Assembly (NCBI GenBank): GCA_964647565.1
Contig: CAZYIM010000005.1
Span: 30,967 to 94,966 of the forward strand
DNA length: 64,000 nucleotides
Source of the DNA: an uncultured Methanosarcinales archaeon
GTDB lineage: Archaea; Nanobdellota; Nanobdellia; Woesearchaeales; CAZYIM01
Direction of reading: 5' to 3'
Shown here in pieces: positions 7,248-47,356 of this stretch; within the stretch, counting starts at the first letter, position 1; the number at the start of each line of letters is the position of its first letter. The notes under the pieces are model-generated. The model saw nothing but the letters and a program-made list of their open reading frames with translations, made no database searches and was not told where the DNA came from. A program made the position numbers and the translations under genes.

Positions 7248-8264
7248 ATGGGGGATAAAAAAGAGGTGAGTAGGTATTTTATTATAGTTGGACTTTTAGT
7301 TCTTCTCTATATTACCTTCCTGCTTGTCAAACCATATCTTACCTATGTGCTGCTGGCGTTTTTACTTGCTTATGCGTGTTATCCGATATATAACAAGCTT
7401 CAGAAGAAGATCAAGAACAAGACTTTTGCTTCTGCCATTATGATAATAGCCATCTTAATCATCATATTCATACCATTGTTCTTCATTGTCTCGTCTCTGG
7501 TCGATCAGTCAAGGGATGTCTATGGTATGGCGACCAGACAGAATATTGATGCGACCCTAAATAATATTGAAAATGCTTTGCATCTTAAAGAAGATCTGAA
7601 TATTTATGTGGATGCAGTCATTCTAAGAATTAAGGAATCCACATTAAAGATGATCCCTAATGTAATAACTGGTATAACAGAGGCAACAGTCGGCCTTTTT
7701 ATTATGTTTTTCATCATGTTCTATCTCTTCAAAGAGGGGGATGTGCTTATCAATAGTATAAGGAATTATCTGCCAATGAGCCGAAAACATAAAAAGTTGC
7801 TTTTCCAGAATACAGAGAGGGTGACAAAAGGAGTGATTTATGGCCAGATCTTAACCGCAATCATCCAAGGAGGCATTGCAGGCATCGGCTTTATCATCTT
7901 TGGTGTTTCTAACCCGATATTTTGGGGTTTCATAATGATGATACTCGCATTTATACCTGTTGTTGGAGCCTGGTTGATCTGGTGGCCTGCAGTCGCCATC
8001 TCAATAGCCCAAGGCAACTATGTGACAGGCATAGGACTTGCTGTCTATGGTCTAATCATCGTCTCTAATGTTGATAACCTCGTAAGACCTAAGTTGGTTG
8101 GTGACAGGGCTAAGCTACATCCTGCTCTGGTATTAATCGGTGTGCTTGGTGGCCTTAAGCTATTCGGCTTTATAGGTATGCTAATAGGGCCTGTGTTCTT
8201 CTCTATCTTATTTGTCTTCTTTAAGGTCTATATGGAGATCAGTGACAAAAAAAGCAAAGCCTAG
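7248..8264 (+). CDS. AI-2E family (PerM/TqsA) transporter
   Basis: Multi-TM; FIPVVG, DNLVRPKLVG, HPALVLIGVLGG. Confidence 0.92.
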   Translation: MGDKKEVSRYFIIVGLLVLLYITFLLVKPYLTYVLLAFLLAYACYPIYNKLQKKIKNKTFASAIMIIAILIIIFIPLFFIVSSLVDQSRDVYGMATRQNIDATLNNIENALHLKEDLNIYVDAVILRIKESTLKMIPNVITGITEATVGLFIMFFIMFYLFKEGDVLINSIRNYLPMSRKHKKLLFQNTERVTKGVIYGQILTAIIQGGIAGIGFIIFGVSNPIFWGFIMMILAFIPVVGAWLIWWPAVAISIAQGNYVTGIGLAVYGLIIVSNVDNLVRPKLVGDRAKLHPALVLIGVLGGLKLFGFIGMLIGPVFFSILFVFFKVYMEISDKKSKA

Positions 8265-9259
8265 ACCATTTTTTTCAAATATAGAAGCAGTTTTTGTAAC
8301 ACTTTCTTTTTCAGCTCTTTCGAAAGTTTAAGAGCTTCGATCTCTTGTTCCCAGTCAAGATTAGGCATTGTTGTTAGACTGCCTTTGAATATGCGCTGAG
8401 CCAGCACCACTTGTATTTCCAGTTCTTTTGCTGCATCTCTGTTAAAGCATTTCAAAGCAGGAAACTTACTTATTGAGTTGGCACCTGCCTTTAAGAGCAG
8501 AGAGACATAATCAATCCTATCCTGCCAGATACCTGCCTGGATGTCAAGCTTAGGGAATTCAATCCTGGTCTTGGCTATCCACCATGCTTGATATTCCATT
8601 GAAGGAGGTTTGCTCTTTTCAAAAGGAGTTCCTTTCTGAGGATTAAGACCATAGAAATGTATCTTCGATATCTTGTATTTTTTTATGAAATCAGCAAGAT
8701 TTAGAAAGTCTTTCTTGGTCTCGCCAAGGCCCAATATTATTGTCATCGCAGTCTTCATCTTAAGCTTCAATGCAGACTCAAACATCTCTTCATAAGGCTC
8801 TATTGGCTTAGATGGACAAACCTTTTTATGCACACGTGGATTGATTGTCTCAATTGAACCTACAACTCCCTTTGTATAAGGCTTGTATTTCTTCAATTGT
8901 TTTTCTGGCAAGGGGCCAATATTCAACCAAATCTTCCTCTTGTTAACAGCATAAACCAGTTTTAGGAGCTTGAAGAAGTCTGCTTGAGTAAATGCATCTA
9001 TACCTCCAGAGAAAAAACCAAACTGCCATCCAAGCTTTTTTGAAAGTAGCACTTCGGCTAGTAGAGATTCTTTTGATCGAACAGCGGGTTTTTTAGCCAG
9101 TTTAATATCAGGCTGGGTACTCATGTAACAATATTTACAATCCCTTATCTTACAGTACCAGCTAAAGAACACAGCCCTCTCAAAACAGGTCTCTGCAGGA
9201 AAATTCTGAAGGAATATATTATTTGCTTTTTTAATAAGAGTATTGGTCTTTAAATCCAT
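8261..9259 (-). CDS. Radical SAM protein, archaeal BioB-like group
   Basis: WYCKIRDCKYC (CX4CX2C) cluster motif, FFSGG, SIET, IILGLGE. Confidence 0.85.
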   Translation of the reverse strand: MDLKTNTLIKKANNIFLQNFPAETCFERAVFFSWYCKIRDCKYCYMSTQPDIKLAKKPAVRSKESLLAEVLLSKKLGWQFGFFSGGIDAFTQADFFKLLKLVYAVNKRKIWLNIGPLPEKQLKKYKPYTKGVVGSIETINPRVHKKVCPSKPIEPYEEMFESALKLKMKTAMTIILGLGETKKDFLNLADFIKKYKISKIHFYGLNPQKGTPFEKSKPPSMEYQAWWIAKTRIEFPKLDIQAGIWQDRIDYVSLLLKAGANSISKFPALKCFNRDAAKELEIQVVLAQRIFKGSLTTMPNLDWEQEIEALKLSKELKKKVLQKLLLYLKKMV

Positions 9260-9298: not shown

Positions 9299-10033
9299 TT
9301 AGTATCTCCTAGCAGGTATGTTTTGATATTCAAAAGGATTTCCTACACCCAAATCTTCAAAAGCATAGTAAATTATTCTACAGGGATCACATTTCCCACA
9401 CAATTTATCTGCCCCTCTATAGCAAGATCGGGTATGTTCAATAGGTGCACCGAGTTCCAAACCTTTTTGTAAAACTCTTTTTTTGTCAAATTTAATTAAG
9501 GGGGTTTCGACTTGAAGAGAAGCTTCATATTTTTTACCGACCTCTGTTGATATTTCAAACAAGCTATTAAGAGTTTTGTAAACTTCCAAACTACAGTCTG
9601 GATAAACGAGACTATCCTGCTTATTTGTTCCAATTATTACCTTACCTACCACAGATTCTCCTGTTCTTAGATAGTCAAGCATAATACTTTCCAGCCAAGA
9701 AGAAGCAATCATAATAAATGTTGGATCACGCCCAGGAGGATATGTCACAGGTATTTCTGAAATGTTTTTTTCTAATGTTCTATTTTTTGGAATCTCTTGA
9801 TGTGCTGTTAGTGCTGATTTCGAGAGCGGGTTATAAGATCTCAAATCAAGAAATTTATGTTCAACAGGTTGAAATATGTCGGATAATATTTTTGCATTTT
9901 CAAGTTCCCTTACAAGGGTCTGACCCCAGTCTATAGACAGTAAATAGAGATCATTATTGTCTTCTTTTGTTATTGCTGTTGCGACACAGGAATCAAGTCC
10001 GCCACTTAATAAACAAACAGATATAGTTTTCAT
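9299..10033 (-). CDS. queC: Divergent QueC-family PP-loop ATPase (7-cyano-7-deazaguanine synthase-like)
   Basis: SGGLDS PP-loop, SALT, YPDC, TPL, SCY...CGKCDPC Zn site. Confidence 0.8.
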   Translation of the reverse strand: MKTISVCLLSGGLDSCVATAITKEDNNDLYLLSIDWGQTLVRELENAKILSDIFQPVEHKFLDLRSYNPLSKSALTAHQEIPKNRTLEKNISEIPVTYPPGRDPTFIMIASSWLESIMLDYLRTGESVVGKVIIGTNKQDSLVYPDCSLEVYKTLNSLFEISTEVGKKYEASLQVETPLIKFDKKRVLQKGLELGAPIEHTRSCYRGADKLCGKCDPCRIIYYAFEDLGVGNPFEYQNIPARRY

Positions 10034-10416
10034 TTTTTGATTACCTCTTCTGATTTAAAATCAGACTCATGACAGTATAAGAAAGCTATATTCCTTGAGC
10101 AGAATTTTCTTTTCAAATAGGCCAGAACAGAATGATAATCAAAATCATTACACGAATGGACATCTGCAACAAATCTTGGATTGATTGTATAAGTGCTGAT
10201 AGTGATTTTTGAGGCATCTATAGCAACATATCCTTCAAGACCTGGATTAGCATATGCTTCAGTAATAATAGGCTCGATCAGAGCATGCATATTAACAGCA
10301 GTAGGCAGGGTTTTCAATACATTCGAAAGAAGAGTTGTATCAATTAACAAATCAAGATTGGGGGAATCACCAGTTACAAGCAAAAAAGCATCTCCATCAT
10401 CAGGTTTATGTTTCAT
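10030..10416 (-). CDS. S-adenosylmethionine decarboxylase (SpeD/SpeH)-fold protein with degenerate active site
   Basis: GLEGYVAIDASKITISTY...ADVHSCNDFD aligns by eye to the G.SG...IAESHISIHT...DVFSC..FD pattern; ATGA overlap with queC. Confidence 0.65.
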   Translation of the reverse strand: MKHKPDDGDAFLLVTGDSPNLDLLIDTTLLSNVLKTLPTAVNMHALIEPIITEAYANPGLEGYVAIDASKITISTYTINPRFVADVHSCNDFDYHSVLAYLKRKFCSRNIAFLYCHESDFKSEEVIKK

Positions 10417-10516
10417 TATACACAGGTAGGATTTTCTAATATAATATATATTTTTGTTGTCTATACTACCAACAACAATGGAAAAATTTAAGAATCAGTT
10501 TAAAAACAAAGAATCT

Positions 10517-11260
10517 ATGAACTATGAAATACTGGAAAAAGCAGGCTTAAACAAGAGTGAAACTAGAATATACTTAAAACTATTAGCAATCGGAAGTTGC
10601 AAAGCAGGAAAGTTGGCTAAAGAGACGAAATACAACAGAACAACCATCTATAAAGCACTGGAAACTCTAATCAGAAAAGGATTAGTTAGCTACATATTAA
10701 AGGAAAATAGAAAATATTTTGAGTCTAATGATCCTAAAAACATTATCGAAGTACTTGAAAAAAAAGAAAAAGAAATAAGGGATCAAAAAAAAGAAATTGA
10801 GTCTATAATACCAAATCTTGCCAGAATTTACGAAAGCCAAAAAGAAGAGCTTGAAACAAAAATATTCAAAGGAATTAAAGGATTAAAGGTTGTCTTCAAT
10901 GATATCATAAAAGATCTAACAAAGGGGGATGAATATCTTGCCTTCGGAATCCCAAAACATGCAGAGATATTCTGGGGATTTTTTGAAGAGTTTAATAAAA
11001 CACTTCTTAAGAAAAAAATCAAATGTAAAATTATTTTTGACGAGAGGGCAAAAGAAAATATCGAATCCTGTAAAAAATACGGATATAATGTCAAAACACT
11101 TAGAAAAGAATTCATGAGCCCCGCAGAAATAAATATTTATAATAATAAAACAGCAATAGTACTTTGGCACAAAACACCTTTGGCCATACTGATCAACAGT
11201 AAGGATATAACCAATAGTTTCAGGCAATATTTTAATTTACTTTGGAAAATTGCAAGATAG
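10517..11260 (+). CDS. TrmB-family transcriptional regulator
   Basis: GLNKSETRIYLKLL...RTTIYKALETLIRKGLV wHTH plus effector domain; ATG 10517 follows a TATA-like box near 10481-10494. Confidence 0.9.
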   Translation: MNYEILEKAGLNKSETRIYLKLLAIGSCKAGKLAKETKYNRTTIYKALETLIRKGLVSYILKENRKYFESNDPKNIIEVLEKKEKEIRDQKKEIESIIPNLARIYESQKEELETKIFKGIKGLKVVFNDIIKDLTKGDEYLAFGIPKHAEIFWGFFEEFNKTLLKKKIKCKIIFDERAKENIESCKKYGYNVKTLRKEFMSPAEINIYNNKTAIVLWHKTPLAILINSKDITNSFRQYFNLLWKIAR

Positions 11261-11273
11261 CTACCTAAAAAAA

Positions 11274-12743
11274 TCAAAGCACTGGAAGAAACTCCTCGAG
11301 CTCGTACCTCGTTACTACAATTGGATTTTCTGTTTGGTCTTCGTGTTTGGTTTTATTAATATAATCATCCCACTCTCTCTTTTTATTTTCAATAAAGCTT
11401 CGATACAAATGGTTTCTGAAAGCTTCTCTGACAAGAGTTCCTTGTTCTGTTGTTTGTATTGCTTCTTTAAGGTTACCCGGAAGACTCTTTATTCCCTTTT
11501 TTTCCCGTTCAGTCTCATCCATTTCATAGACATTCTCGTGCACGGGCTCGGGTATTTTATATTTTTCAGAGACGCCTTTTAATCCTGCATGCAACATGAC
11601 TGCAAATGCCAGGTAGGGATTACAGGCAGGATCCGGGCTTCTAAGTTCTAATCGAACTGCATTCTCTTTGCCAGGTTCATATATGGGTACTCTGACAAGG
11701 TTGGACCTGTTTTCAGGATCCCAACAGATATAGACTGGCGCTTCATATCCAGGAACTAGACGCTTATAAGAGTTCACCCACTGGTTCAACACAGACGTTA
11801 CCTCAGGAGCATGTTTCATTATACCTGCCATAAACTGTTTAGAAGCAATAGACATTCCAAATGGATCTTTAGAGTCAAAGAAAAGATTCTTATTTCCCTT
11901 GAAGAGAGACATATGTATATGCATACCGCTGCCATTCACACCCCTTAGAGGTTTAGGCATAAATGTTGCAAACAGCCCATGTAATCTGGCAACTCGCCTC
12001 AAGACATACTTATATAGAATAATAAAATCAGCCATCTCAAGAGCATCTGTATATCTAAAATCAGTTTCATGTTGTGACGGCGCCACTTCGTGATGATCAT
12101 ACTCAAACTTGTAGCCCATTGCCTGCAATAACAACTGGCTCTCTTTTCTAACCACACCATACCTGCCACCCTTAAAATAATCACCATGATCTGTGATTAG
12201 AGGTACACCATTCTCAAGCAAAGGTCTGCCCATACCATTGGCCTGGAAAAGAAAGAACTCCAGCTCCGGACCTACATAGACATGGTCTGCACCCATTAAT
12301 TTTTTTGCATTTGCCAATCCCCTTTCAAGCACATAACGAACATCACCTTCGTATCTTTGCCCATCAGGATTGTACAGTTTGGCAAACATGATCAACTCTC
12401 TCCAGGTCTGGTCTTCAATACCTGCTGTTTTTGGCGTGTATATCCAGGGTGTGACTCTTGCACTCTCGACAATAGGCACCGCTAGCTTGTCACTCTCCTG
12501 TATTCTGGACTGGCCGAGTACAGAACTGCCGTCGTATCCAAAGCCCCTCTTAAGGCTTTCTTCTGTAACCTCATAGCTGGGCACTGTAAAATCACATTCC
12601 ATATTTCCCAACAAGTCTGTAAAAAAAATTCTCACAAACCTTATGTCCGGATTTGTCTTGAGCAGATCTAAAACATCTTGGATAGTCTTGCAGGGTTTGT
12701 ATTTCATCGGATCAAAGTCAACTTTATATTTTTCTTCACTCAT
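11274..12743 (-). CDS. glnA: Glutamine synthetase type I
   Basis: YDGSS, GPELEFFL, HHEVAPSQHE, ATFMPKP, NGSGMHIHMS, NSYKRLVPGYEAP, RLELRSPDPACNPY. Confidence 0.97.
   Translation of the reverse strand: MSEEKYKVDFDPMKYKPCKTIQDVLDLLKTNPDIRFVRIFFTDLLGNMECDFTVPSYEVTEESLKRGFGYDGSSVLGQSRIQESDKLAVPIVESARVTPWIYTPKTAGIEDQTWRELIMFAKLYNPDGQRYEGDVRYVLERGLANAKKLMGADHVYVGPELEFFLFQANGMGRPLLENGVPLITDHGDYFKGGRYGVVRKESQLLLQAMGYKFEYDHHEVAPSQHETDFRYTDALEMADFIILYKYVLRRVARLHGLFATFMPKPLRGVNGSGMHIHMSLFKGNKNLFFDSKDPFGMSIASKQFMAGIMKHAPEVTSVLNQWVNSYKRLVPGYEAPVYICWDPENRSNLVRVPIYEPGKENAVRLELRSPDPACNPYLAFAVMLHAGLKGVSEKYKIPEPVHENVYEMDETEREKKGIKSLPGNLKEAIQTTEQGTLVREAFRNHLYRSFIENKKREWDDYINKTKHEDQTENPIVVTRYELEEFLPVL

Positions 12744-45541: not shown

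Positions 45542-47356
<1,815 letters not shown>

Follow-up and report, generated by a model that had tools for sequence, protein, structure and literature searches.

A divergent QueC coupled to a rearranged AdoMetDC-fold protein: apparent short version of a rare four-gene cassette in DPANN-type archaea

Introduction

For a long time QueC was credited with a single function. That its scaffold accepts other nucleophiles became clear from protein deazaguanylation in defence systems, and Cap9 and QatC are described as attaching carboxy-deazaguanine to their partner proteins at the N-terminal glycine (Libby et al. 2026 preprint, PMC13082051). Here we analyze a QueC gene with a partner of another kind. 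In a 64,000-nt stretch of the archaeal contig CAZYIM010000005.1 (the window), a gene encoding a divergent QueC overlaps one encoding a small protein with the fold of S-adenosylmethionine (AdoMet or SAM) decarboxylase (AdoMetDC, SpeD), and both genes face away from a gene for a TrmB-family regulator. The pair seems to be a shortened version of a rare cassette of four genes from DPANN-type archaea.

In the ArcS-RaSEA system, lysine is reported to be added to preQ0 (7-cyano-7-deazaguanine) and then removed by a radical SAM enzyme (PMC11298593). Homologues of AdoMetDC are described as having repeatedly become arginine or ornithine decarboxylases, including in DPANN archaea (PMC10407285). The same source states that Ser63, His68 and Cys83 of the Thermotoga maritima enzyme are essential for self-processing and catalysis, and gives these three residues as conserved across SpeD and its arginine/ornithine decarboxylase offshoots. 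Tgt, QueA and QueH have been reported in DPANN archaea (Castelle et al. 2021, PMC8204110), in a paper in which a term search found neither 'QueC' nor 'preQ'. In the literature that we searched, neither a QueC paired with an AdoMetDC-like protein nor the four-gene cassette is described; the main text of the QueC-family preprint (PMC13082051) uses none of the terms decarboxylase, RaSEA, TrpB, DPANN and TrmB. New here are the enzyme partners within a 7-deazaguanine gene cluster and a subfamily of the AdoMetDC fold.

Results

The small protein belongs to a distinct subfamily of the AdoMetDC fold

The small gene (10030..10416, minus strand) encodes 128 amino acids (aa) and overlaps the 244-aa QueC gene (9299..10033, minus strand) by the 4 nt ATGA, as read directly in the sequence. 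The regulator gene (10478..11260, plus strand; open reading frame (ORF) called from 10454) diverges from both, and the GC content of 0.31 at 10001-11500, compared with 0.34-0.43 in the flanks, marks an AT-rich block. ORF positions, overlap, divergent regulator gene and AT-rich block all lie where the first-pass annotation, a model's reading of the letters, had placed them.

The 128-aa protein matched Pfam PF02675 (AdoMet_dc) at 36.8 bits (cut-off 25) and TIGR03330 at 24 bits (cut-off 75.65). Its AlphaFold2 model had a predicted local distance difference test score (pLDDT) of 95.5 and a predicted template modelling (TM) score (pTM) of 0.87, and the best Foldseek matches of the model were the AdoMetDCs of T. 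maritima and Aquifex aeolicus (TM 0.73-0.81). The T. maritima structures 1tmi, 1vr7 and 1tlu aligned with TM scores of 0.74-0.81; E-values for these three and 2iii ranged from 1.5e-7 to 1.4e-5. The AdoMetDC fold first proposed for this ORF by eye is thus confirmed by Pfam and by AlphaFold2/Foldseek.

Single-sequence, word-based searches for relatives returned only the protein itself or nothing. Exhaustive HMMER searching recovered 70 relatives at E <= 1e-3, headed by a group of about 11 at 39-53% identity, and a profile built from this top group (A2) collected 55 subfamily clusters, both archaeal and bacterial, whose annotation, if any, is generic AdoMetDC-like. Profile A2 had no match at E <= 0.01 among PDB sequences, whereas a wider family profile (A4) did match; in viral_contigs A2 found no relative, and the ESM Atlas yielded only generic AdoMetDC clusters, at 0.89. 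The subfamily was separated in two trees: 14 members stood apart from 50 other members of the family with 100% support in the Shimodaira-Hasegawa-like approximate likelihood ratio test (SH-aLRT), and 52 members stood apart from 6 canonical rows with 99% SH-aLRT support and a long stem.

The active site of the subfamily has been rearranged. Ser69, at the position of the pyruvoyl-forming serine, is present in all 52 subfamily members and in 50/50 canonical rows, and Cys89, equivalent to the catalytic Cys83 of T. maritima, is found in 52/52 members, as are Tyr63 and Asp67. At the position of T. maritima His68, occupied by His in 49/50 canonical rows, 51 of the 52 members have Ser (Ser74). Conversely, His87 is present in 51/52 members, and its equivalent in the 50 other rows is Phe or Tyr, never His; judged by residue alternation along strand 81-88 of the AlphaFold2 model, His87 and Cys89 lie on one face of the strand. 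Position 70, which is His in 46/50 other rows, is Asn in 50/52 members and Lys privately in the window. The motifs first read as ASK, IST and HSC are all present in the small protein, with Ser and Cys kept; as signatures of the clade, Ser74 and His87 stood, and Lys70 did not. Across conserved positions the window protein departs at 2, compared with 0-5 in the other members. Rather than a degenerate copy, it is an AdoMetDC-fold protein whose active site has been rearranged coherently and under strong selection. Because the serine at the pyruvoyl position is invariant, the formation of the pyruvoyl group has probably been retained.

QueC of the window falls into a clade of its own

QueC of the window scored 150.4 bits with the Pfam QueC model and 129.1 bits with TIGR00364, below the equivalog cut-off of 150.3, and 23.3 bits with the QatC model NF041925, for which the cut-off is 280. 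Nine database clusters were akin to it, at 43-62% identity and 204-349 bits, with ordinary QueCs following from 157 bits. The resulting clade of ten sequences had an SH-aLRT support of 100% and a stem of 0.62. A phylogeny had been suggested for placing this QueC among the canonical, QatC and Cap9 proteins; it is neither QatC nor plain canonical and sits in its own clade.

Compared with the canonical signature, which was established by mutagenesis (PMC13082051), much of the QueC machinery is kept. The P-loop SGGLDS at residues 10-15 is invariant in alignments A3 and A5, and so are the zinc cysteines C204, C212, C215 and C218, whose spacing (C-x7-C-x2-C-x2-C) matches several canonical rows of A3; the essential Tyr after the first of these cysteines is present (Y205), as are the YPDC motif (Y144, P145, D146 and C147) and the conserved Arg, Leu and Lys. 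Two other motifs have changed. YxQxHxxE reads WGQTLVRE in the window, with Gln and Glu kept, Tyr replaced by Trp and His by Leu; across the clade, the first residue of the motif is W, G (three members) or Y, and His is kept in none. VPxRN reads PPGRD, with Arg kept, Val replaced by Pro and Asn by Asp, and this change is clade-wide. The substitutions Y35A (in YxQxHxxE, Escherichia coli) and R99A (in VPxRN) are reported to be inactivating (Libby et al. 2026 preprint, PMC13082051). An insert of about 12 aa follows WLES. The first-pass annotation had listed YPPGRD, DSLVYPDC and TRSCY as departures of a QueC that otherwise kept its P-loop and zinc cysteines, and all of this was found in the protein; YPPxRDP and DS..YPDC proved common to the ten-member clade, TRSCY to only part of it. 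At conserved positions the window protein departs at 7 and the other clade members at 1-12. A complex prediction for QueC and the small protein, run without controls, gave a score of 0.00 and a mark of 0.32, which speaks neither in favour of binding nor against it.

The pair recurs within a four-gene cassette

In L017, a contig of a Nanoarchaeia metagenome-assembled genome (identical to genome G317), a TrmB gene on the opposite strand is followed by the small gene, a gene for a 394-aa pyridoxal-phosphate (PLP) enzyme, a gene for a 327-aa radical SAM enzyme and QueC, with a 4-nt overlap at each of the three junctions between enzyme genes. The small protein and QueC are 50% and 58% identical to those of the window. 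The PLP enzyme resembles TrpB2, with scores of 275.6 and 260 bits that are both below the cut-offs; its best PDB relatives are TrpB2 structures of Sulfolobus solfataricus, and it retains both the catalytic Lys and, in the TETG motif, the Glu. The radical SAM enzyme scored 169.5 bits with the RaSEA model (TIGR01210), below the cut-off of 212.15, and its sole match among PDB sequences was the queuine lyase 6p78. The cassette order is SpeD-like, TrpB2-like PLP, RaSEA/queuine-lyase-like radical SAM and QueC. In the metagenomic loci L019/L020 and L021/L023 the small gene is again followed by a TrpB2-like gene and then by one for a radical SAM enzyme. The recurrence that the first reading had proposed to look for was found: the window pair is part of a recurring module linked by its regulator, as seen from L017, the shared regulator and the shared operator.

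The module is rare. The genome that holds the window is G000 in our tallies (2.68 Mb, 87% complete; the listed relatives have 0.6-2.1 Mb), and the tallies for the order and the phylum include four unpublished genomes (G120, G207, G131 and G315) that were counted solely as non-members. Among 401 sampled genomes of the order, the subfamily profile reached 171 bits in G000 and G317 only, the next best match having 80.7 bits, and the QueC query had 4 matches, in G000, G317 (58% identity), G215 (34%) and G314 (28%). A phylum sample of 401 genomes held no further member of the subfamily and none of the QueC clade (G000 415 bits, G215 178, the rest <=133). The more divergent QueC-like gene of G215 (L060, contig C2, 1456-2187; 34% identity) is a third one, in which YPDC is replaced by F-E-D-I in alignment A3; it lies between a dephospho-CoA kinase gene, a 217-aa ORF and a cytidylyltransferase-like gene.

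A probable third co-occurrence of the small protein and the QueC clade comes from the protein clusters P0208 (small protein) and P0081 (QueC clade), both with sources JGI and Logan and two contigs each. In each of the two clusters the longest contig measures 3184 nt, a length that leaves no room for all four cassette genes, and P0208/P0081 are probably a second short form.

A TrmB-family regulator and its probable operator

The winged-helix domain of the regulator, residues 27-88, matched PF01978 at 47.9 bits (cut-off 25.6), and no family match was found for the C-terminal part of about 150 aa. The regulator at the same place in L017 is 66% identical over 248 aa, and TrmB genes diverge likewise in L019 and L021. 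On the basis of an alignment of the four intergenic regions, the true start is most likely the ATG at 10478 (MEKFKNQ...) rather than the TTG at 10454; family and orientation of the gene remain as first described, and only its start has moved. The four regions (window, L017, L019 and L021) share an invariant inverted repeat, TTGTTG-N13-CAACAA, which in the window occupies 10454..10478 (no strand) and is the sole site, with 0.01 expected by chance. It abuts the ATG of trmB and lies just upstream of an AT-rich, TATA-like stretch (about 10437-10453) of the enzyme operon. The repeat is probably an operator, with the TrmB protein as its putative ligand.

Deazaguanine genes and Tgt in the window genome and its relatives

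The window encodes a bacterial-type Tgt, tRNA-guanine(34) transglycosylase (45542..46657, plus strand), 35 kb away and outside the operon. It scored 431.6 bits with TIGR00430 (cut-off 306.75) and 156.5 bits with the archaeal TgtA model (cut-off 350), and is the sole TGT-family match in G000; bacterial-type Tgt scored above the cut-off in 40/61 relatives, in line with the Tgt reported from DPANN archaea (Castelle et al. 2021, PMC8204110). ArcS-like and archaeal TgtA genes were not found in G000, and QueA, QueH and QueF were found in neither G000 nor G317. A search of G000 for the de novo preQ0 pathway, with FolE2/MptA (PF02649) outside its scope, found no FolE, QueF or convincing QueE: PF01227 and PF14489 had no match, and TIGR03365 matched generic radical SAM proteins only. 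In G317 the candidate for QueE turned out to be NrdG. Since QueE, FolE and QueF as well as QueA and QueH were not found, QueC of the window has no visible de novo substrate supply, and the base inserted by the window Tgt is not matured to queuosine. Tgt is a possible consumer of the operon product.

A 117-aa PTPS-like ORF in G000 (L016, contig C19, 1456-1809; PF01242 35 bits, no NCBIfam equivalog match) is the only possible QueD-like gene of that genome. In G317, FolE adjoins an ORF that reads as FolB-like by eye, without a family scan. In genomes of the same class, QueC genes were seen in other settings. In L087 (G469, contig C133, 1004-2157) a canonical QueC (TIGR00364 211.6 bits) is followed 18 nt on by a gene of the PvlArgDC family, pyruvoyl arginine decarboxylases not homologous to AdoMetDC; with 72.2 bits compared with a cut-off of 106.95 the latter is a divergent member, and the same-strand run also holds a dTMP-kinase-like gene and a methyltransferase gene. 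L087 is a second, independent adjacency of QueC and a pyruvoyl decarboxylase; as a single case it may be due to chance. Five other genomes of the class (loci L084, L085, L088, L089 and L091) have, in a conserved arrangement, an ordinary QueC divergent from a family-2 glycosyltransferase gene and beside a gene for a B12 radical SAM protein or a GT4 glycosyltransferase, not beside queD or queE.

Neighbouring genes of the window

By family scan, the neighbours of the operon are genes for an FtsX permease, an AI-2E transporter and a BioB-like radical SAM protein, glnA, an Lrp gene and an amylo-glucosidase gene. No queD, queE or folE was found among the neighbouring window genes, in agreement with the first reading, and the family scan showed these neighbours to be unrelated. 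No defence-type gene was found among the genes scanned around the operon. PADLOC, run on four window proteins, matched a generic QueC model only (58.7 bits), and a reading of the locus as a defence system was rejected. A scan for sigma-70 promoters and terminators was also run on the window; it is uninformative for an archaeon.

The BioB/HmdB/PylB-like radical SAM gene (8261-9259, minus strand; 332 aa) lies 39 nt downstream of QueC and scored 286 bits with the NCBIfam model PRK06267 'hypothetical protein' (cut-off 305). It was considered as a third member of the operon and rejected, being unrelated to the radical SAM enzyme of L017. It is present in 36/61 relatives at 38-64% identity, mostly without the module, and for this reason is a housekeeping gene outside the module. 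Elsewhere in G000, many radical SAM ORFs of 300-560 aa, which surfaced as weak matches to the RaSEA and QueE models, lie on contigs C12, C13, C17, C29 and C35, several of them clustered on the same contigs.

Discussion

We tentatively favour, at somewhat less than even confidence, the reading that the TrmB-controlled, translationally coupled operon tailors a 7-deazaguanine base, using an amine from the decarboxylase-like enzyme and the carboxylate chemistry of QueC. The cassette is tied to 7-deazaguanine chemistry by its RaSEA/queuine-lyase-like enzyme and QueC. Decarboxylation to a primary amine would be the simplest link between the genes, because the partners of the small protein are a maker of amino acids (TrpB2-like) and amine-derivatising enzymes; an amine-supplying decarboxylase fits both the TrpB2-like and the amidinotransferase partners as these are predicted from sequence. 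By analogy, an amine-ligating QueC is plausible on the precedents of ArcS-RaSEA and Cap9/QatC. Neither gene of the window pair bears signs of relaxed constraint.

Under the favoured reading, the 128-aa protein would be an active pyruvoyl enzyme whose general-base His has moved to two residues before the catalytic Cys, and it would decarboxylate an amino acid other than AdoMet to a primary amine. QueC would adenylate a carboxylate of the 7-carboxy-7-deazaguanine type, as all characterised enzymes of its family do, and, with a remodelled and enlarged pocket, would transfer the acyl group onto the amine or onto ammonia, so that an amide, a nitrile or an amidine results. The long form would have the TrpB2-like enzyme as the maker of the amino acid, and its radical SAM enzyme might trim the adduct, by analogy with the conversion of preQ0-Lys to archaeosine. 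The deazaguanine precursor would be salvaged, and the product would probably feed the bacterial-type Tgt. Fold, clades, conserved residues, recurrence, regulator and operator, and the gene content of the genomes were observed directly in our analysis; the self-cleavage, the substrates, the ligation step and what becomes of the product are what we infer in this scheme.

Several observations weigh against the favoured reading. The subfamily has no His equivalent to T. maritima His68, which is stated to be essential (PMC10407285), and would have to self-cleave without it. The two middle enzymes of the cassette, TrpB2-like and RaSEA-like, have no homologue in G000 at 87% completeness, where the best TIGR01210 match (31.4 bits) is a generic radical SAM protein; the short form may therefore do something different or nothing. 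The long form with QueC was seen once, as the contigs of L019/L020 and L021/L023 end within the radical SAM gene. The two families also part ways. In the bacterial loci L018 (Nannocystaceae; 1288-2724) and L022 (3571-7315) the small protein occurs without QueC, its gene standing beside one for an amidinotransferase of the StrB1/SxtG/AGAT type (1bwd, E 2e-107), and the two amidinotransferases are 44% identical to each other. In L024-26 a copy of the small gene accompanies a TrpB2-like gene only, again without QueC. Members of the QueC clade lie on contigs of 393, 54.5, 21.1 and 17.9 kb, and no member of the small-protein subfamily was found on a contig of equal size, which is indirect evidence. 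Finally, the window Tgt has Met and Ile aligned to the Cys of 'DEC' and the Val of 'LAVGE' in the Zymomonas mobilis enzyme. We take these positions to control the size of the pocket, and Met and Ile there give no hint of space for a bulky side chain.

The loci without QueC have features of their own. A gene for an ApyD-like B12 radical SAM protein is also present in L022, and one for a P-type ATPase in L018; the setting of both looks like a small natural-product cluster. In L024 (26-313), L025 (5719-5805) and L026 (1170-1256), which represent one metagenomic population, the small gene is seemingly truncated at its N-terminus or broken, its products P0009 and P0012 having 83-95 aa, and the TrpB2-like gene is intact.

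An unlikely rival is that the operon merely houses two ordinary functions, QueC being a preQ0 synthase that works on a salvaged precursor for Tgt and the small protein a polyamine decarboxylase of the arginine/ornithine type. Such a QueC would account for the retained P-loop, YPDC, zinc cysteines and conserved Arg, Leu and Lys, and for its being the sole strong match to the QueC family in G000 (149.3 bits; four others <=39.5); yet the Tyr and His of YxQxHxxE are lost, Y35A being reported as inactive in E. coli (PMC13082051), and neither QueE nor FolE was found in G000, the 'QueE' match of G317 being NrdG. Likewise, the small protein is the only AdoMet_dc homologue of G000, and AdoMetDC homologues are described as turning repeatedly into arginine or ornithine decarboxylases, DPANN included; the described forms, however, keep Ser63, His68 and Cys83 (PMC10407285), and the subfamily has lost His68. 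Polyamine-type relatives in the order stand beside agmatinase-like and deoxyhypusine-synthase-like ORFs (read by eye, without a family scan), whereas the window gene does not; the PvlArgDC-family gene beside the canonical QueC of L087 may just as well be one for polyamines. Two separate functions would also allow for the finding that the QueC clade and the small-protein subfamily can each be present where the other is absent, but both variants coincide exactly in 2/401 genomes, the window genes share a 4-nt overlap, a regulator and an operator, and in L017 the small gene and QueC bracket the RaSEA-like and TrpB2-like genes.

It is quite improbable that the small protein is no enzyme at all and serves QueC as a protein target or an obligate structural partner that becomes deazaguanylated in the manner of Cap9 and QatC. 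Conjugation by QueC-family proteins to the N-terminal glycine of a partner is known (PMC13082051), the genes are translationally coupled, and both canonical His residues have been lost from the small protein. Its Ser, His, Cys, Asp and two Tyr are nevertheless invariant (51-52/52), a sign of catalysis or of a bound ligand; members of the subfamily also stand beside enzymes of small molecules in loci where QueC is absent; the window protein does not start with Met-Gly; and the QatC model gave 23.3 bits against a cut-off of 280, with no other defence model matched and no defence-type neighbours among the scanned genes. The first-pass annotation had offered a non-catalytic QueC substrate as one of two possibilities, and it is the invariance of the active site across 52 sequences, loci without QueC included, that disfavours it. 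We also hold it very improbable that the small protein is a nitrogen-donor subunit, a His-Cys amidohydrolase delivering ammonia to QueC much as the glutaminase domain does in GAT-QueC fusions. Both His87 and Cys89 are invariant and share one strand face in the model, which, like the tight coupling of the genes, would suit such a role; it would leave the invariant Ser at the pyruvoyl position without a function and the TrpB2-like and amidinotransferase partnerships unexplained. Phillips and colleagues are said to have described GAT-QueC fusions in Crenarchaeota in 2012, and we know of no amidohydrolase with the AdoMetDC fold. Least probable of the readings weighed here is a functionless, decaying remnant left after the TrpB2-like and radical SAM genes were lost from the cassette. 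G000 does lack homologues of these two middle genes, and Lys70 is a private change where 50/52 members have Asn; but both ORFs are intact, the ATGA overlap, the regulator and the operator have been kept, the departures from conserved positions are within the range of other members (2 versus 0-5, and 7 versus 1-12), and there is a probable second short form on the 3184-nt contig.

A bolder extension of the favoured reading, which we consider doubtful, is that in DPANN archaea with a bacterial-type Tgt and without QueF, QueA, QueH or ArcS the cassette is a new route to an undescribed 7-deazaguanine base for tRNA and possibly for DNA, the TrpB2-like enzyme and the pyruvoyl decarboxylase building an amine, QueC using ATP to ligate this amine to the deazaguanine carboxylate and the radical SAM enzyme remodelling the adduct. 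If this were true, the two-gene form of the window would be the minimal unit of decarboxylase plus ligase, and the rewired pyruvoyl decarboxylase would represent a novel way of catalysis for the AdoMetDC fold. A third adaptation of QueC, with decarboxylase-like, TrpB2-like and RaSEA-like partners, would open a new branch of 7-deazapurine biochemistry, and it could explain the base inserted by the bacterial-type Tgt of many DPANN archaea. The small-protein subfamily, with about 55 clusters, offers a directly testable case of the migration of a catalytic residue in a self-processing pyruvoyl enzyme.

Compared with canonical QueC (PF06508 cluster 1 of Libby et al. 2026), the window protein has the same fold family, length, P-loop, YPDC, zinc cysteines with their Tyr, and Arg, Leu and Lys, but differs in its score below the cut-off, in its changed YxQxHxxE and VPxRN motifs, in the insert of about 12 aa and in forming a separate clade; its genome, as searched, is without QueE, FolE and QueF. 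Cap9 and QatC likewise belong to the QueC family, are encoded beside a partner and use as nucleophile an amine other than ammonia. With 244 aa, however, QueC of the window has neither N- or C-terminal extensions (about 400 aa) nor the Cap9-like truncation (about 185 aa), and no CD-NTase, QatA, QatB or QatD is encoded near it.

With class 1b AdoMetDC/SpeD and its offshoots SpeDA and SpeDC, the small protein shares the fold, about the same size, the pyruvoyl Ser and the catalytic Cys. Its subfamily differs from them in having Asn or Lys after the Ser, a new invariant His before Ser-Cys and no His68, and in being partnered by TrpB2-like, radical SAM, QueC or amidinotransferase genes rather than polyamine genes. 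Like ArcS-RaSEA, the long cassette pairs a RaSEA-like radical SAM enzyme with deazaguanine chemistry, although its enzyme scores below the RaSEA cut-off and the window genome, in which Tgt is of the bacterial type, has no ArcS-like, TgtA or RaSEA-like gene; the proposed amine adduct, which would later be trimmed, copies the logic of that system.

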